From: a virus
Lineage: Duplodnaviria; Caudoviricetes
Direction: 5' to 3' (one strand)
IMG/VR virus record: IMGVR_UViG_3300049892_000014
Span: 40,913 to 104,912 of that record
DNA: 64,000 nucleotides
Under the pieces are notes generated by a model, which was not told the origin of the DNA, did no database searches, and saw only the letters and a program-made list of their open reading frames with translations. This document shows positions 3,345 to 42,736 of this stretch, piece by piece. Made by a program: the position numbers and the translations under genes. How positions within the stretch are numbered: the stretch's first letter is position 1; each line of letters opens with the position of its first letter.

Positions 3345-4243
3345 TACTCCCTCCCTTCCCAGGATTCTTGGTTGACTGGATACACTTTAAGACCATTACT
3401 TCTCCACATAGCTACTACCGAAGGCCTATCGTCTACGATAAAGTCAATAGAATCCTTTCCGTATCTAGCTATAATTTTATCAAGGATCTCTTGCTTTACA
3501 ATGGTATCGGCACGATGATCGCCTCCATTGCGCATAAACATGCGAACCGGAGAGACTCCATTACAAATTAGCATATCCTCGGTAAGAATAGCCTCGTCAG
3601 TTCCTCTCCCGCTAACAATAAATGTTGTTGTAGACCGATTCATCACGTAGAACCAGTCTGCAATAGGTCTGTTAATCTTATCAAGCATAGCTTCGTTCTT
3701 TAATGCCGATGGATGAATCCTCTTTCCATTCGCATCAACACGTCCCAATCTATGACTAATATTCATCAGGGTGCCATCTACATCCCATATAGTAATCTTA
3801 GACCTATTGGGATCAAGGTCTGGTAAAAGATTATATCGCAGCGCCATGTTTTCAATCACAGCCCTACCAACCCTTCCGTTCCCCTGCCGCATCCTATCTT
3901 GATATATACAATCGTTCACAGCTGTCGGCATTTCGATTAACTCAAAGACAGAATCGCACATTTCCGCAATACCACGCCACATATCTTCATTCTTCGGGCT
4001 AAGATTTGTGTCGTCAATCACTACGTTAAATCCAAGGCCCAAAGACAGTTCTGCTATGGATTTTTCCGCACGAATAACAACATCCTCTTTCTTTCCAGAC
4101 CATCGAAAATCTTTCCCGAAGATCATCAACCGAAGATCATCTCTATTGAGTCTAACTGCCGTTTTACCATTTCCCACAATCTCCCTAGACTTCGTACTTT
4201 TACCGCTAGCTGGGAGACCCTTCATCATTATAAGTTTTGGCAT
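3344..4243 (-). CDS. pseT: polynucleotide 5'-kinase/3'-phosphatase (T4 PseT-like)
   Basis: P-loop GLPASGKST, NRDDLR; HAD domain DVDGT, SGR, K, DDR. Confidence 0.92.
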   Translation of the reverse strand: MPKLIMMKGLPASGKSTKSREIVGNGKTAVRLNRDDLRLMIFGKDFRWSGKKEDVVIRAEKSIAELSLGLGFNVVIDDTNLSPKNEDMWRGIAEMCDSVFELIEMPTAVNDCIYQDRMRQGNGRVGRAVIENMALRYNLLPDLDPNRSKITIWDVDGTLMNISHRLGRVDANGKRIHPSALKNEAMLDKINRPIADWFYVMNRSTTTFIVSGRGTDEAILTEDMLICNGVSPVRMFMRNGGDHRADTIVKQEILDKIIARYGKDSIDFIVDDRPSVVAMWRSNGLKVYPVNQESWEGRE

Positions 4244-30200: not shown

Positions 30201-30555
30201 ATTACCGACAGTTGGATGGCACGACGTAAACACCAAGGAAATAATCCTTCGTGATAAGGGTGCGGTTACCTACCTGCCGTATGCTGTCTTTAAAAATGTG
30301 AAAGAGGTATGGCCTGATAGCGCAACTTACGCAATAGTAAATCGGTACGGGGAAACGCAGGGCCAACTATGGTTTACCCCTATAGATCTTGGCGATAATG
30401 TAAAGCTTAGCATGGAAACTTTTTGCCAGATGGTCCAGGATCAACAAGGTGGAACCGAATACAGCAGAGACGATTTAATCGGTTATCTGAAAGCCCTCCT
30501 GGAAGCAGATGTGGAGCTTTATAAATTAATGGTGAAAATGGGAAAATGGGATTGA
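30190..30555 (+). CDS. hypothetical protein with shared C-terminal helix
   Basis: ends LEADVELYKLMVKMGK. Confidence 0.65.
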   Translation: MPIKLPTVGWHDVNTKEIILRDKGAVTYLPYAVFKNVKEVWPDSATYAIVNRYGETQGQLWFTPIDLGDNVKLSMETFCQMVQDQQGGTEYSRDDLIGYLKALLEADVELYKLMVKMGKWD

Positions 30556-30580
30556 CAAGCTAATTTGACTGTGCTACTAT
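30552..30580 (+). promoter_or_regulatory. sigma70-type promoter
   Basis: TTGACA-17-TACTAT with TG extension. Confidence 0.75.
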
Positions 30581-30601: not shown

Positions 30602-30976
30602 ATGTGGCTGATGACGAAATACGGATTTTATTCTATAGTACAAAAACGACCTGGCATATATCATGTAAGGGCTAGGGAGGTGCATGACTTGTATCACCTA
30701 ATAGACTTCGTCCCTCTTCCAGGAAGAGAGGTTAGATTTACCGGTACTAATGATTATCTAGCCAGGCTGATTCTAAACAAGGAAGAGCTTGATAGAGTAA
30801 TGACTTTCCTTAGCAATAACATTGATTACGACAACTTTAAAGATAAGATAGATAAGACTCCAGAGCAGAGACGCAAACCATACCACAAGATCTGGCAAGT
30901 ATTAGCAGATGCTTTGGGAGCGTATGGTATGCCGCCTAAAAAAAATGGGGGTGAGAAAGTTTCGACAGCCGGATAA
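30602..30976 (+). CDS. conserved hypothetical protein
   Basis: MWL.TKYGFYSIV, VRAR, DY..R, IDYDNFK; GGAGG RBS. Confidence 0.7.
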   Translation: MWLMTKYGFYSIVQKRPGIYHVRAREVHDLYHLIDFVPLPGREVRFTGTNDYLARLILNKEELDRVMTFLSNNIDYDNFKDKIDKTPEQRRKPYHKIWQVLADALGAYGMPPKKNGGEKVSTAG

Positions 30977-31029
30977 GTCCCTGCGGGGAACCTGGCTGGA
31001 CCTGGGAGCGTTACCCAGCACCTCCACCA
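30947..31029 (+). ncRNA. minimal tmRNA-like RNA (tRNA-like domain only, no tag ORF)
   Basis: GGGGGTG/CACCTCC acceptor with G3-U70, A73, CCA; stemless D loop ending TTCGA; P2a CAGCCGG/CTGGCTG; GAC linker; T arm. Confidence 0.8.
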
Positions 31030-31045
31030 AACTTAAGGAGATATT

Positions 31046-31663
31046 ATGAAGTATAGTTCATTTCTAAGATTTTTATTAGGTTTAGGACTAGTGATACTTG
31101 CGGTCGGATTATTCGCTACGACTACGGACTATGTAGCTAAATATCTTTATGAAAAGTCTAGACCTATACCTATCTCTAAAACGTCTTCCATGATAGATGA
31201 GGATGTATTAAAGGGTTTCACTCAGGATGGTAATGATATAGTTTATGATCGGCTTGCGGATGAGATAATCGTTGCCTCTAAGAAGTCGGGCGAGAAGTAC
31301 AATATCCCACCAATACTGATACTCTCAGTAATGCAAGCCGAGTCTTCCTTCAACCTGAACGCATTCAGCAAGGAAAAAGCTAAGGGATTGATGCAGATTA
31401 ACACGGCTGTTTGGGGAGATCAGTTGCGTAAGGCTGGTATAATAAGTAAGGACTCAGATATCTATGATCCTCAGAATAATATTGAGGCAGGATGCTTTAT
31501 ACTGCGTCAGTACATTGACGAGACTAAAGACTTTGAGAAGGCGATGAATAAGTATTTAGGCGCTTACTATAAACCATATATTGACAAGATCGGTCGAAAT
31601 GTGGGAGATATATGTATGAAAAATATTTCCAAGAGGATTGACGCAACGTATAAAATAAAATAG
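31046..31663 (+). CDS. lytic transglycosylase (SLT) with N-terminal membrane anchor
   Basis: QAESSFN, AKGLMQI, YDPQNNIEAG; N-terminal hydrophobic helix. Confidence 0.88.
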   Translation: MKYSSFLRFLLGLGLVILAVGLFATTTDYVAKYLYEKSRPIPISKTSSMIDEDVLKGFTQDGNDIVYDRLADEIIVASKKSGEKYNIPPILILSVMQAESSFNLNAFSKEKAKGLMQINTAVWGDQLRKAGIISKDSDIYDPQNNIEAGCFILRQYIDETKDFEKAMNKYLGAYYKPYIDKIGRNVGDICMKNISKRIDATYKIK

Positions 31664-32195: not shown

Positions 32196-32546
32196 TTGAA
32201 GAACCTACTATTCAGCCTAACAGCTAAAGACTTTGAGTTCCAAACCTTCTGCACCGGAGGAAATGGTGGGCAGCATCGCAATGCTAAGCAGAACGGTGTT
32301 AGATGTATTCATCCAGATTCAGGAGCTAGAGCCGAGCATAGAGATGGACGTGACCAGAGAAAGAATAAGCAAGAGGCGTTTAGAAAGTGTTGTGAAACGC
32401 CTACTTTTAAGATATGGCACAAGCTTGAAGTTGCTAAAAGGCTCAGGCAACCAATACAAAAAACAGAAGAAGAAATTCAGAGATACGTAAACGAGCAGAT
32501 GCAAGAAGGGAATTTAAAAATTGAAGAACTTGAAATTTCAGTTTGA
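32196..32546 (+). CDS. GGQ release-factor-like peptidyl-tRNA hydrolase domain protein
   Basis: GGNGGQHRN, VRCIH..SG, RDQRKNK..A; domain 3 only. Confidence 0.85.
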   Translation: MKNLLFSLTAKDFEFQTFCTGGNGGQHRNAKQNGVRCIHPDSGARAEHRDGRDQRKNKQEAFRKCCETPTFKIWHKLEVAKRLRQPIQKTEEEIQRYVNEQMQEGNLKIEELEISV

Positions 32547-33179: not shown

Positions 33180-33264
33180 GATGACGTAGTTATAATCCTT
33201 CGGGTAGTTAGAACGCCACCATTAGGGGGTGGTAGTGCTGATAAAAACGCAGCCGTCATCATCA
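33180..33264 (+). ncRNA. atypical tRNA-like element (TAG anticodon)
   Basis: perfect GATGACG/CGTCATC acceptor and CCACC/GGTGG anticodon stem; non-canonical D and T loops; ends ATCA. Confidence 0.6.
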
Positions 33265-34600: not shown

Positions 34601-34674
34601 TGGTGGTTAGCCTAATGGCAAGGCAGCGGGCCTTGAACCCGCTTAAATAGGTTCGATTCCTATACCATCTACCA
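34601..34674 (+). tRNA. tRNA with TTG (Gln) anticodon, atypical identity elements
   Basis: cloverleaf, loop CCTTGAA, CCA. Confidence 0.85.
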
Positions 34675-35794: not shown

Positions 35795-36904
35795 ATGGCA
35801 AACGTAAAAGATGTTTTTTCGATAGAAGCTCTTGACGAACAAATAGAGCGTGGATTTGTGTCCAAACGTAAACATCCAGATCTCCCACTGTATATATATA
35901 ACTATACCCAGGAGGCTACGTTTGCCAATGAATGGAATGAAGTCACTATGACTTGTAGGGGGTTGATATTAGATGGAGACTATAATATTATCGCTCGTCC
36001 TTTTAGGAAGTTTTTTAATCTGGAAACTGCTGGCCTTCCTGAGACGCAAATTAACAACCTTCCTAGGGACGTTAAACAAACTATAACCGAGAAGATGGAT
36101 GGTTCTCTTGGAATTCTTTGGAGATATAAAGGCCACGAAGGCATAGCGACTAGAGGTTCCTTTACCTCTGAGCAGGCGATATGGGCAACGAATCATTGGC
36201 GTACATTAATGTTTTTAAGATGGCACTTTGCATTCGACCGTGATACCACTCCTTTGTTCGAGATTATATATCCAGAGAATCGCATCGTTGTTGACTATAA
36301 GGGTGACAAGAAGCTTGTTCTGCTAGGAATTGTGAATAATGCAGATGGAACCGAATATTCCTATGACGAACTTAAATCCACTGGATATCCCAATGTAGTC
36401 ACGGTCTATGAAGGTAAATCTCTTTCCGATTGCGTATCTCAAGCTGAGACGGATTTACCTCTTAATAGGGAGGGGTATGTTGTAAGCTATGATACTAAGC
36501 CAATGCCCCTTCGTATTAAAATTAAGTTTGACGAGTACCTCAGATTACATAGGCTTATCTTCAGCTTAAATGATCGGGTCATCTGGGAATCTGTTAGCCA
36601 AGGCATTAATCCTAATGCTAATCTCGACTATGCTCCAGATGAAATCAGAGCATGGATAAAGAAATACACTCAGAAGTTTCTAAGTGAGTGCGAGAGAATT
36701 GCGTACACTGCCGAGGACGTGTTTAACCGGAGACCACGCAATGTCAGTAGGAAGGAAATTGCACAATGGTTTAGTATGTATCCAGAAGTAAAGAGTTCTT
36801 GCTTTGCGATGCTGGATAATAAAGATTACTTTCCTATCATATGGAAGATGCTTCGACCAAAACATGCAACACCTTTTAGGAGGGATGTGCCTGATGGAGA
36901 ATAA
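35795..36904 (+). CDS. RNA ligase 1 (T4 Rnl1-like)
   Basis: CRGLI, ARPFRKFFN, TEKMDGSLG, ATRGSF, FEII, EGYV, KIK. Confidence 0.9.
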   Translation: MANVKDVFSIEALDEQIERGFVSKRKHPDLPLYIYNYTQEATFANEWNEVTMTCRGLILDGDYNIIARPFRKFFNLETAGLPETQINNLPRDVKQTITEKMDGSLGILWRYKGHEGIATRGSFTSEQAIWATNHWRTLMFLRWHFAFDRDTTPLFEIIYPENRIVVDYKGDKKLVLLGIVNNADGTEYSYDELKSTGYPNVVTVYEGKSLSDCVSQAETDLPLNREGYVVSYDTKPMPLRIKIKFDEYLRLHRLIFSLNDRVIWESVSQGINPNANLDYAPDEIRAWIKKYTQKFLSECERIAYTAEDVFNRRPRNVSRKEIAQWFSMYPEVKSSCFAMLDNKDYFPIIWKMLRPKHATPFRRDVPDGE

Positions 36905-37970: not shown

Positions 37971-38639
37971 ATGGTTAGAAGCGATAGAGATCGTGAATAT
38001 GATAAACGGTACAGAGAAGAACATAGAGAAGAGATTAGAGAGCGTGATCGTCGCTGGAGAGCGGAACACCTAGAGAGCATAAGGGAGAGTCAAAGGATAT
38101 CTAATAGAAAATATGCAGAGAAAAACAGAGAATCCCTCAATGCTAAATCTAACAATCGCTACTGGAAAGACATTGAAGCTTCCAGGGCTAAAGGTAGGAA
38201 GTATGCCGCAAAGTATAGAGAAGAACACTTAGAAGCGGTCAGGGGGAGGGATCGTGAGCATTATGCTAAAAAAGGTGGTAAGGAGAAAATGAGACAGTGG
38301 AGAGCGAAAGATCCAGAAGCAAGGAGGGAGAGGGATAGGGAATATGAGAAAAAAAATTACTCCTCTAGAAGAGATGGGAAGCTAAGGAGTAAATACAATA
38401 TCTCACTATCAGACTACAGCGAGATGCTAGAAAAACAAAATGGAGCGTGTGCTATCTGCGGGATAGATCGAAATTTCCCAGGAAAGGGTAATAAGCTATT
38501 TGTGGATCACGATCATAAAACAGGCAAAGTTAGAGGGCTTCTGTGTAACAATTGCAACGCTCACCTTGGAATCCTAGAAAACGAAGCGTTTGTCAATAAG
38601 GCTAATGAGTACTTGGGTGGAGGAGAATATAATGTCTGA
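37971..38639 (+). CDS. endonuclease VII-family nuclease with charged helical N-terminus (probable free-standing homing endonuclease)
   Basis: QNGACAIC, VDHDHKTGKVRGLLCNNCN..LG. Confidence 0.88.
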   Translation: MVRSDRDREYDKRYREEHREEIRERDRRWRAEHLESIRESQRISNRKYAEKNRESLNAKSNNRYWKDIEASRAKGRKYAAKYREEHLEAVRGRDREHYAKKGGKEKMRQWRAKDPEARRERDREYEKKNYSSRRDGKLRSKYNISLSDYSEMLEKQNGACAICGIDRNFPGKGNKLFVDHDHKTGKVRGLLCNNCNAHLGILENEAFVNKANEYLGGGEYNV

Positions 38640-39723
38640 ACATATATGTGAAGTAGTTCCAGTAGTACTAGAGAAACACGACAACGCTGACCTACTGTCT
38701 ATTGTCCGTGTTCGTGGATGGCAGTGTGTCGTGAAGACTGCTGATTTTCAGAACCAGCCACTGGGTATATATATCCCAATCGACATGATGATTCCAGATA
38801 CACCTGAATGGGCGTGGATGGAAAGTAAGCGTGTCAAAACTCACAAGTTCCGTGGAGCAATCTCTCAGGGATTACTTATACCAGCGGCAAAGGGTATGCG
38901 TATCGGAGACGATGTAACGGCACAACTTGGTATCACTAGATACATACCAAAGATTCCTGGTAATAAAAGCAAGCTCCGTGGCGGTCAGTCTATCGCACCG
39001 CCTCCAGGTATGATTAAGTACACAGATATAGAGAACTGGAAGAACTACTCTCATATCTTTACTAATAAAGATCTAGTAGTGGTTACAGAGAAGATACATG
39101 GGGCCAATTCTAGGTTCGCCATACTGGACGGTAAGTTCTATACTGGATCTCACAACACTGTTCGGAAGCCTATTCCGCCAGAGCCGACTAGTTGGTTTGG
39201 TAAGAAGATTCTTTCTTTAAAGCGAAAGATGGGCCTGGCTCCAATTAAGCGGACTCCAGATACATGGCAACAGGTAGCGGTGAATTACGACATAGAGAAT
39301 AAGATGCGCATGGCCTTTCACAATAAGCAGGACGTTATCTTATTCGGTGAAATCTACGGGCCTCATGTTCAGTCTAGTATGCCATACGGAGTTCCAGAAG
39401 GAGAGACTCATGTAGCGTTCTTTGATTGCTATACAGATGGACGCTATATGGGATGGAATGAATTCCAATCCAAAATGATCTCCATGGGTCTACCAACTGT
39501 CCCCCAGCTTAAAATCATGGCCTTCGGTCAAGATGTTATAGATATGGTAGATGGCAAGGCTTTTGCTGGTACTCATATCAGAGAGGGTATTGTTGTAAAG
39601 CCTTGGCCGGATGAGCAGTTCGACAGCAGGCTTGGTCGTAAGGTTATTAAAATGATTAGCGACAAATATCTCTTGAAAGACTACGAGCAAGAGCCTGATG
39701 ACGCTATTGACGTGGCTGAATAA
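38632..39723 (+). CDS. RNA ligase, DRB0094-like with N-terminal OB fold
   Basis: HDNADLL, FRGAISQGL, TEKIHGAN, FGEIYG, FFD, REGIVVK. Confidence 0.88.
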   Translation: MSEHICEVVPVVLEKHDNADLLSIVRVRGWQCVVKTADFQNQPLGIYIPIDMMIPDTPEWAWMESKRVKTHKFRGAISQGLLIPAAKGMRIGDDVTAQLGITRYIPKIPGNKSKLRGGQSIAPPPGMIKYTDIENWKNYSHIFTNKDLVVVTEKIHGANSRFAILDGKFYTGSHNTVRKPIPPEPTSWFGKKILSLKRKMGLAPIKRTPDTWQQVAVNYDIENKMRMAFHNKQDVILFGEIYGPHVQSSMPYGVPEGETHVAFFDCYTDGRYMGWNEFQSKMISMGLPTVPQLKIMAFGQDVIDMVDGKAFAGTHIREGIVVKPWPDEQFDSRLGRKVIKMISDKYLLKDYEQEPDDAIDVAE

Positions 39724-40849: not shown

Positions 40850-42736
40850 TTGAATCATATACAGGAACATAAGATTTTAACAGAGGTATGGGACCATCTG
40901 GATCAAAGACTAGATGATGCTGGGGGAATTGTATGGAAAGCCTGGGAGTCACTATCAAGCTTAGAGATTGAATTTATCACCAAAGAAGTGGGTAGGATAG
41001 TAACAGATCCCAGGTACTATCTCACTCACTATCACAAAATCCGCACCAAAGATAATATGATTCGCTCCATGCTTCCTTTGTTTGATTCGCAGGAAGCGTT
41101 TCTTGAAATATTCCTTCGACAATTAAATAACAAAGAACCGATTAGAATTATCGTCTTAAAAGCTAGACAGCTTGGAATGACATCTTTAAGTACAGCCCTA
41201 GTATTCTGGCGTACTATAACCATGGAAAACGTCAACACTGCCTCTATTAGCGATGAAGATGAGCGTTCATTAGTAGCTTATAATATGTGTCGTATCGCCT
41301 GGGAAAGTTTACCGTGGTGGTTTAAGCCGGAGGTGAGACATCTCGTACAAGCTAAACAGATTACTTTCGACAGAACTAATGAGAAAGATAGGGCGAAATC
41401 TCCTGGGCTTCGTTCAAGTATTAGTTTTGAGCCTGCTAATTCCCCTTCTGGCGCTCTTTATTCTAAGTCTCTCTTTGCTATACATTGCGCTGAAGTAAGT
41501 CGATATCGGAAGGCCGACGCTCTAGTAGAAGGAGTATTCGGGTCTCTTGTTAATATACCTGGCTCTATAGGTATCATGGAAAGCACGGCAAGAGGACGTA
41601 AGGGTGTATGGTATGATATATGCGATGCGGCTATGCACAAGCGTATGGACTGGGAATTCTTGTTCCTTCCGTGGTTTTCAGAGCCTGGATACAGGGAAAC
41701 TGTTATAGGTGGATTTAGCAGAACAAAGGAAGAAGAGTCTATTGCCATAGGCGCTGAACGGGATTATGGAGTAAAGATTGATGATGAGCAATTAAATTGG
41801 CGACGGCGTAAGGCTGCTCAGTTTACGGCGGCTGATGGAAATGACGATAGAGTTGCGCAGGAATTTGCAGGAAATCCAACCGAAGCGTTTCTACAAACAG
41901 GATCGTGCGCATTTAATAAGAAGATGCTCCAGATGCAGGTAAACAACTTCGTACAGCCGCCCATGTGGGAGGGCGAGGTTGCATTAAAGCCTAATAATAA
42001 ACAACCAAAATTGACCAGGCTTCCAGACGGAAGATTTCAAGTATGGGAATGGCCAAGGGCTAATGAAGTATATTACGTACCTGGAGATCCATCTCTAGGA
42101 GTTGAAAACGCCGACTTTTCCTGCATACAGGTATTAAAGATACCAAAAGATCCAATGAAGCCCATTGAGCAAGTAGCTAGATGGCATGGATTAGTAGGAA
42201 CTCCAGAGTTCGCTAGGATCATGTGCGCTATTGGCTATCTGTATAATACTGCTGAAGTGTGTCCAGAGAGTAATACATTCCAGAATATTATCAGCGATAT
42301 AGTCAGGGTATATGATTATCCTAACTGGTATAGATGGACAGCTGACGACAAAGTTAAGGGACAGTACTCTAACTTTATGGGATGGGTCACTAATAGTCGA
42401 ACTCGTCCTGCTATTATCTCTAAATTTAGGGAAGCTATTAATGAGATTACGGTCATCATAAGATCGGCTGACGATATTAATGAATGCTATGATTTTGGTG
42501 ACGTTGATGGCTTTGGTGATTCCAAGCGATTTGAAGCACTCTCAGGACACGATGATGGACTAATGGCATTCATGATTGGATATTATGTTTGCACTAAGAT
42601 ACAGCCAAGACTATACGAGTCTGACGACGTCATCTATACAGACCCTAATGCTACTAGGCAGAATACGGATTACTCCCCAATTTACGACAATGATCCAATG
42701 GATAACCCACAACGCTTTGACTATGACATGCTATAA
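40850..42736 (+). CDS. terL: terminase large subunit
   Basis: LKARQLGMT Walker A, ESTARG, PWF, nuclease GDPSLG..D, ESN, HDD..MA. Confidence 0.92.
   Translation: MNHIQEHKILTEVWDHLDQRLDDAGGIVWKAWESLSSLEIEFITKEVGRIVTDPRYYLTHYHKIRTKDNMIRSMLPLFDSQEAFLEIFLRQLNNKEPIRIIVLKARQLGMTSLSTALVFWRTITMENVNTASISDEDERSLVAYNMCRIAWESLPWWFKPEVRHLVQAKQITFDRTNEKDRAKSPGLRSSISFEPANSPSGALYSKSLFAIHCAEVSRYRKADALVEGVFGSLVNIPGSIGIMESTARGRKGVWYDICDAAMHKRMDWEFLFLPWFSEPGYRETVIGGFSRTKEEESIAIGAERDYGVKIDDEQLNWRRRKAAQFTAADGNDDRVAQEFAGNPTEAFLQTGSCAFNKKMLQMQVNNFVQPPMWEGEVALKPNNKQPKLTRLPDGRFQVWEWPRANEVYYVPGDPSLGVENADFSCIQVLKIPKDPMKPIEQVARWHGLVGTPEFARIMCAIGYLYNTAEVCPESNTFQNIISDIVRVYDYPNWYRWTADDKVKGQYSNFMGWVTNSRTRPAIISKFREAINEITVIIRSADDINECYDFGDVDGFGDSKRFEALSGHDDGLMAFMIGYYVCTKIQPRLYESDDVIYTDPNATRQNTDYSPIYDNDPMDNPQRFDYDML

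Follow-up and report, generated by a model that had tools for sequence, protein, structure and literature searches.

A phage-encoded tmRNA reduced to its tRNA-like domain, its natural relatives and a possible role in competition with host tmRNA

Introduction

The tRNA-like domain (TLD) of transfer-messenger RNA (tmRNA) is the part of the molecule that is charged by alanyl-tRNA synthetase (AlaRS), is bound by SmpB and EF-Tu, and takes over the nascent chain when a ribosome is non-stop (PMC8012679). In the standard one-piece tmRNA (SsrA, RF00023) it accompanies pseudoknots, a resume codon and a tag frame in an RNA of some 360 nt. The two-piece tmRNAs of Alphaproteobacteria (RF01849) and of phages such as Sphingobium phage Lacusarx are permuted and likewise carry a tag frame. 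Loss of the tag-coding region with retention of the TLD is known from organelles, in the form of the CDS-less tmRNAs of jakobid and oomycete mitochondria (RF02544) and the approximately 65-nt plastid forms of the Mallomonadaceae (PMC11915505).

The known phage counterpart is the 'TLD only' tmRNA of mycobacteriophage DS6A (PMC4131195), elsewhere listed as a 'standard, no CDS' tmRNA, a category with 9 entries among 97,179 curated tmRNAs (PMC11915505). Both accounts cite Mao et al. 2009, and DS6A is so far the one published phage example of the class. When expressed in E. coli, the DS6A form inhibits the endogenous tmRNA (PMC11915505); a DS6A-like molecule is described as inhibitory whether or not it can be charged, perhaps by titrating SmpB (PMC4131195).

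Here we describe another RNA of this kind, hereafter the mini-tmRNA, in the tailed-phage record IMGVR_UViG_3300049892_000014. The window, that is, the whole stretch of DNA analysed, comprises 64,000 nucleotides (positions 40,913 to 104,912 of the record), and coordinates given without a contig name refer to it. An initial annotation of the locus overstated the case in that, as the DS6A accounts make plain, the class had already been published.

Results

Sequence and fold of the mini-tmRNA

The mini-tmRNA occupies 83 nt, whose letters match those first transcribed, and is considerably richer in G+C (63%) than its flanks (40%). Its parts are as follows.

30947-31029, plus strand: TLD-only (tag-less) mini-tmRNA gene with encoded CCA (fold; leave-out model R1; the genome's only match)
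30947-30953, plus strand: 5' strand of the acceptor stem, G3 at 30949 (7 of 7 pairs formed with 31019-31025)
30954-30965, plus strand: stemless D loop, A18 at 30958 and G19 at 30959 (sequence; A18-G55 covariation)
30966-30998, plus strand: P2a, internal loop and capping hairpin (P2a pairs 30966-30972 with 30992-30998; 4-bp hairpin at 30978-30989)
30999-31018, plus strand: GAC linker, 5-bp T stem and variant T loop (A54 at 31007, G55 at 31008, C56 at 31009, U58 at 31011)
31019-31029, plus strand: 3' strand of the acceptor stem with U70 at 31023, A73 at 31026 and CCA at 31027-31029 (sequence, fold)

The minimum free energy and centroid structures computed with ViennaRNA give one and the same fold (-35.9 kcal/mol, z -1.9). 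A 7-bp acceptor stem containing G3·U70 is followed by a 12-nt stemless D loop ending in UUCGA and by a 7-bp P2a, beyond which lie a 5x2 internal loop, a 4-bp hairpin and the GAC linker; a 5-bp T stem with the loop AGCGUUA, A73 and CCA complete the molecule. The sequence and fold originally proposed, a TLD with G3·U70, A73 and CCA and with no tag region, are thereby confirmed. By analogy with established tmRNA structure, the D loop would be the region contacted by SmpB. The two strands of P2a stand only 19 nt apart, which leaves no tag frame and no pseudoknot region; where a full tmRNA has its pseudoknot and mRNA-like region, there are P2a, the internal loop and the hairpin.

A descriptor of this architecture matched once in the 105-kb genome, at 30947-31029, and never in 60 simulated genomes of equal dinucleotide content. 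Nor was any other tmRNA piece found elsewhere in the genome. The mini-tmRNA itself was missed by ARAGORN, also with a lowered threshold, and by Rfam at gathering thresholds, while blastn against cultured phages returned just short matches at its 3' end. Of the existing tmRNA models, named initially as a check on the identification, RF00023 had no match at E 0.001, and the Rfam alpha_tmRNA model matched the 3' half alone, weakly and below its cut-off (18.7 bits, E 8e-4).

Class assignment

A covariance model, R1, was built without this RNA, without a relative sharing its T loop (L092) and without DS6A. R1 recognises the mini-tmRNA at 74.8 bits (E 1e-15), its sole match in the genome, together with the DS6A RNA at 59.4 bits; tRNAs score at most 31 bits. 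The gene is in one piece and in standard order, with both ends of the TLD and a paired 7-bp acceptor stem; the alanine identity set G3·U70 and A73 is present, as is the CCA position; the anticodon arm is absent, the D loop is stemless, and P2a and the linker are tmRNA-like. By every defining feature that can be judged from sequence, then, 30947-31029 belongs to the TLD-only tmRNA class, of which DS6A is the type, and the proposal that a phage RNA gene here consists of the tmRNA tRNA-like domain alone is supported by family membership, pairing and fold.

Three other assignments were rejected. A standard tmRNA (RF00023) would have an mRNA-like domain, a resume codon and a proteolysis tag, all of which are absent. 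A permuted two-piece tmRNA (RF01849, RF04321) places its acceptor piece ahead of its coding piece, across an intervening sequence; here the 5' acceptor strand lies upstream and contiguous, and the only matches to these models were partial and sub-threshold. As for tRNA-Ala, there is no cloverleaf with D stem and anticodon arm, and neither ARAGORN nor RF00005 makes a tRNA call.

The DS6A tmRNA (JN698994.1 28478-28560; tmID 11587) is likewise a one-piece, phage-encoded RNA of 83 nt with no tag frame, with G3·U70 and A73, a stemless D loop, and a P2a on which an internal loop and a short hairpin sit. Identity between the two is only about 59%, however, and they differ in detail: DS6A has a canonical elbow (G18/U55 with U54/A58) and does not encode CCA, whereas the mini-tmRNA has A18/G55 with A54/U58 and encodes it. 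Unlike DS6A, the mini-tmRNA takes in the upstream gene's stop codon and lies near a GGQ gene and tRNAs. With SsrA it shares the entire TLD (alanine identity, stemless D loop, P2a, linker, T arm and CCA), but none of the remaining parts; from the two-piece tmRNAs it is set apart by its standard order and by having no coding piece. The CDS-less tmRNA of an organelle is the organelle's only tmRNA, whereas the host into which the mini-tmRNA is brought presumably possesses a full one; the mitochondrial forms, moreover, are usually permuted, unlike the mini-tmRNA, and co-occur with nucleus-encoded SmpB.

A family of relatives

In viral contigs, 88 stretches matched an exact pattern describing a short-middled TLD; looser or targeted patterns added members from viral contigs, metagenomes and bacterial genomes. 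Many pattern matches in the genome contigs were dropped as chance matches inside full-length or two-piece tmRNA genes, in which P2a is unpaired; P2a of the mini-tmRNA, by contrast, pairs 7/7. Filtering for complete acceptor and T stems and for no fewer than 5/6 P2a pairs left 101 distinct sequences, which form 72 clusters at 85% identity (the only handling of kinship in the covariation counts) and measure 72-100 nt, mostly 77-83. At positions left free by the patterns, 97% of cells are paired, against 49% after shuffling. A 22-sequence alignment contains two-sided changes in all three helices, while slid controls drop to about 50%.

G3·U70 is present in all 67 viral family members, even with C70 allowed by the search. 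Each of P2a's first six pairs is preserved, with compensatory changes, by 60-66 of the 67, CCA is usually encoded, and the folds of most members contain a similar internal loop and a stub of 2-4 bp. The capping hairpin with its internal loop is accordingly a recurring feature of the family and not an arbitrary cap. This recurrence, and the stop codon of the upstream ORF lying inside the RNA, are the two points that go beyond the initial annotation.

The closest relative of the mini-tmRNA is 75% identical to it. Collecting homologs yielded strong compensatory pairing, and the view that the RNA is conserved and not decayed was borne out. A recent deletion from a full-length tmRNA, or an attP-derived scrap of host ssrA, had been named as the findings that would overturn this view; compensatory pairing across the 101 relatives and the scores of the leave-out model make either origin unlikely. 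Our literature search, which covered few subscription papers, found no published account of a wider phage family or of A18/G55, so the commonness of the TLD-only class and the elbow covariation seem to be absent from that literature.

Shorter members of 69-73 nt, with A54/G55 loops and a reduced middle, occur on metagenome contigs (L102:12944-13009, L107:992-1061 and L106:1846-1914).

The D/T-loop elbow

The T loop and D loop of the mini-tmRNA had been described at the outset as a rewired elbow, with changes suggestive of covariation. Among the clusters, A18 is found with G55 in 20 and with a pyrimidine in 3; G18 is never found with G55 and stands with a pyrimidine in 47. Positions 54/58 read U/A in 51, A/U in 10 and G/G in 7, which accounts for most clusters. 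The loop of the mini-tmRNA itself is found in 6 of the 72, and since members with a purine at 54 and G55 were enriched by targeted scans, none of these loop frequencies should be read as population frequencies. The two contacts vary separately: Victivallales copies combine A54/U58 with G18/U55. That the D/T-loop contacts covary places the L-shape under selection.

The suggested covariation thus stood, but the elbow is not peculiar to the mini-tmRNA. A18/G55 was present in all 24 ordinary alphaproteobacterial two-piece tmRNAs seen, and seven viral two-piece genes combine A18 with an A54/G55/U58 loop; ARAGORN called five of the seven with a tag, and one of those five matches Sphingobium phage Lacusarx. 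Because tag-bearing tmRNAs already use the same elbow, this evidence speaks for its compatibility with SmpB and the ribosome and against its being a special adaptation of the mini-tmRNA.

Genomic context

The virus record (104,912 bases, about 82% complete) encodes terminase, portal, major head and internal virion protein genes. Capsid and terminase searches found no close relative of the phage, the best terminase identity being about 26%. At its present completeness, the contig yielded no SmpB, no full tmRNA and no further mini-tmRNA. Ten tRNA genes are present in the record; nine of them, with two RNA ligase genes, lie within 9 kb of the mini-tmRNA. Its neighbours include the following.

30552-30580, plus strand: sigma-70-like promoter candidate in an intergenic gap (10 of 12 matches, 17-nt spacer, extended -10)
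30602-30976, plus strand: gene for a 124-aa hypothetical protein, the last 9 codons and stop lying inside the mini-tmRNA
31046-31663, plus strand: SLT transglycosylase gene (PF01464)
32196-32546, plus strand: stand-alone GGQ (RF-1 domain) peptidyl-tRNA hydrolase-like gene, 116 aa (PF00472, phrog_3122)

The promoter candidate is the best site in a region where the number of such sites is at chance level; it probably drives a transcript covering the upstream ORF and the mini-tmRNA. Downstream, the Shine-Dalgarno sequence of the transglycosylase gene (31035-31040) begins 6 nt past the CCA. Excision from a polycistronic transcript would be the simplest reading of this arrangement.

The mini-tmRNA begins at codon 116 of the 124-aa ORF, whose stop sits 28-30 nt into the RNA. 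The protein has 185 homologs, with conservation ending near residue 112; the ORF is a real gene. In two other contexts of this gene (including L097) the neighbours are unrelated. RNase P cleavage at 30947 would leave the upstream mRNA without a stop codon. As a family-wide rule, overlap with an upstream stop was unsupported: an ORF crosses the RNA in 12 of 66 clusters, several of these being chance frames in G+C-rich DNA, and in 38 of 698 control tRNAs. Separately, an upstream UAG stop overlaps the first base or bases of the RNA in one group of loci (L002, L007, L008, L019, L020, L038, L039, L055 and L070) as well as in L092:2926 and L015, so that 5' maturation would destroy the stop. In Carsonella, smpB overlaps ssrA in like manner (PMC4131195).

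The GGQ gene lies 1.2 kb downstream of the mini-tmRNA on the same strand. Its product has an acidic tail, unlike that of ArfB (3 K/R and 8 D/E among the last 30 residues), and shares 66% identity with Tunturiibacter phage proteins and 37-42% with RF-1-domain proteins of mycobacteriophages; that the best cultured matches are Acidobacteriota phages is a weak hint at the host. A conserved module of mini-tmRNA and GGQ gene was sought in both directions and proved unsupported: PF00472 was found in 0 of 49 mini-tmRNA phage records (with a positive control run) and the mini-tmRNA on 0 of 34 contigs with close GGQ relatives, many of the records in both sets being fragments. Since the gene is mostly found within tRNA islands, it is best seen as a common resident of such islands in phages and not as an obligate partner. 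A permuted tmRNA scored above cut-off on 8 of the 34 contigs of this GGQ subfamily, and a match was present in both Tunturiibacter phages.

Such permuted two-piece matches are unannotated in the Acidobacteriota phages, at L338:8332-8741 (Tunturiibacter phage Tunturi_4), L339:2394-2618 (Tunturi_3) and L350/L351:4780-5031. In Tunturi_4 the tmRNA starts directly past the stand-alone GGQ gene; the tag that ARAGORN predicts for it is unusually long, at 33 residues.

The two RNA ligase genes (35795-36904 and 38590-39723, plus strand) lie just past the tRNA cluster; one is T4 Rnl1-like and the other DRB0094-like, both below curated cut-offs, and their position suggests a capacity for tRNA repair. Within the cluster, the tRNA at 34601-34674 (plus strand) combines a UUG anticodon with G3·U70, A73, a U1/U72 mismatch and C33, and is possibly a second alanine-accepting RNA of the same island. 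A cloverleaf-like fold at 33180-33264 (plus strand) drew no call from ARAGORN or Rfam. The sole tyrosine recombinase gene of the genome (6510-7085, minus strand; PF00589) lies 24 kb from the mini-tmRNA among replication-type genes; at 191 aa its product is short for an integrase and is more likely a resolvase.

Discussion

With slightly better than even confidence, we favour a role for the mini-tmRNA as a charged, SmpB-bound competitor of host tmRNA that lowers ssrA tagging. We infer the corresponding events in the cell from the observed sequence, fold, family and covariation and from the absence of a tag region and of a phage SmpB. Host tRNA-processing enzymes would cut the RNA from a longer phage transcript; host AlaRS would charge it, as its conserved G3·U70 and A73 indicate; and host SmpB and EF-Tu would bind it as they do the TLD of tmRNA. 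It would then vie with host tmRNA for SmpB and for the ribosomes that stall on non-stop mRNA. An RNA with the TLD and no message can compete with host tmRNA but cannot tag: with no resume codon or tag frame, it would add no ssrA tag, and the net effect would be that nascent proteins are less tagged and less proteolysed during infection. Ribosomes that it entered would have to be freed otherwise, whether by drop-off and Pth, by host factors of the ArfB or ArfA type or, here, possibly by the GGQ protein.

The inhibition reported for the DS6A form agrees with competition. The invariance of G3·U70, kept in every viral member when C70 was allowed, argues that charging matters in nature; it suggests that natural copies are charged, so they probably reach the ribosome. 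SmpB was found neither in the 49 carrier phages nor in the phage studied here, so the mini-tmRNA would use that of the host. Other considerations weigh against competition. Once a charged TLD had accepted the chain, the ribosome could remain stuck, and our searches turned up no conserved partner for release; the reported inhibition was seen on expression in E. coli and not during infection; and blocking of tagging is not a general phage need, because many phages carry full tag-encoding tmRNAs.

It is unlikely, in our estimation, that the RNA is purely a sponge, binding SmpB and shutting down trans-translation with no action on the ribosome and with only incidental alanylation. Inhibition by chargeable and unchargeable molecules alike (PMC4131195) and the lack of SmpB in carrier phages would suit it, but a sponge needs no AlaRS determinant, and both the invariant G3·U70 and the usually encoded CCA would go unexplained. 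Productive rescue free of tagging, in which the RNA and SmpB accept the chain and the phage GGQ protein hydrolyses peptidyl-Ala-RNA and recycles the ribosome, strikes us as decidedly unlikely. It draws on the nearby same-strand gene for an acidic-tailed protein without ArfB's basic tail, on the frequent sharing of a genome between GGQ relatives and tmRNA (8/34 permuted; adjoining in Tunturi_4), and on the persistence of tag-less tmRNAs with SmpB in some mitochondria (PMC11915505). The reciprocal absences (0/49 and 0/34, with many fragmentary records) and the residence of the GGQ gene mostly in tRNA islands tell against it. An extended version, for which we hold out little hope, would join the tag-less RNA, host SmpB and the GGQ protein in an undescribed tag-free rescue route in which maturation by RNase P makes the upstream mRNA a non-stop substrate, the upstream protein accumulating only once host tagging is displaced.

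Further readings dispense with ribosome rescue, or with function altogether. That the mini-tmRNA is a decoy or shield within a tRNA island, guarding against host toxins or defence systems that cleave or detect tRNA or tmRNA, seems to us very improbable: the neighbouring tRNA and RNA ligase genes are in keeping with it, as is a same-strand tRNA within 500 nt in 16 of the 49 family clusters examined, yet two thirds of clusters have no adjacent tRNA, the anticodon loop that tRNA nucleases usually target is missing, and the features retained (stemless D loop, P2a, GAC) are those specific to tmRNA and not generic to tRNA. A cis-acting processing signal would split the polycistron by RNase P cleavage at 30947 and strip the upstream stop, making the level of the upstream protein dependent on trans-translation, as for ArfA. 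The upstream ORF is real, its stop lies within the RNA, a few unrelated loci (the L002 group, L092 and L015) have a stop overlapping the first bases, and the Carsonella overlap is similar (PMC4131195). We nevertheless give this reading a very slim chance, given the rarity of crossing ORFs across clusters, the unconserved overlapping tail and the unrelated neighbours in the two other contexts of the gene; any fold resembling a tRNA would do as such a signal, leaving the tmRNA-specific features unexplained. Scarcely credible, finally, is a non-functional remnant, whether of a recently deleted tmRNA or of an attP-derived piece of host ssrA. The genome does have a small tyrosine recombinase gene, and integration sites are known to carry truncated pieces of tmRNA (PMC4131195); those remnants, however, have one end missing, whereas here both ends are present and fully paired, and the size and distance of the recombinase (191 aa, 24 kb off) further led us to reject integration. 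The 72 clusters of 72-100 nt with compensatory changes, the pairing of free positions (97% against 49%), a nearest relative at 75% identity and the 7/7 pairing of P2a, unpaired in pieces of full tmRNA genes, all oppose decay.

Should competition with host tmRNA prove correct, phages would commonly tamper with the near-universal process of trans-translation by means of a tiny RNA. Strict patterns yielded 101 distinct, well-paired members, drawn from viral contigs, from metagenomes and from some genomes of bacteria, while ARAGORN and the Rfam cut-offs missed the copy described here. What that copy contributes to the class is a variant elbow and an overlap with the upstream stop, not a new kind of system. 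Natural tag-less variants offer a direct test of the fate of the ribosome once a tag-less TLD has accepted the chain, and natural elbow variants offer direct tests of which D/T-loop forms SmpB and the ribosome tolerate.

Mini-tmRNAs of the TLD-only type are also carried by Victivallales/Lentisphaeria genomes (L146:2902-2979 and 3608-3685; L137:3301-3378; L185:5740-5817; L115:1520-1597), with further loci in L136, L138, L151, L165, L172 and L205, and up to three RF00023-like matches of about 81 nt occur on one contig. A normal full-length tmRNA was also present in four of the five such genomes checked. The RNAs are flanked by an ORF of about 420 aa belonging to no known family and by a VWA gene, after which L146 and L137 have a PP2C gene, a neighbourhood resembling the TerY-phosphatase-kinase (TerY-P) defence or stress operon. 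These copies possibly represent a non-phage, operon-embedded use of the mini-tmRNA.
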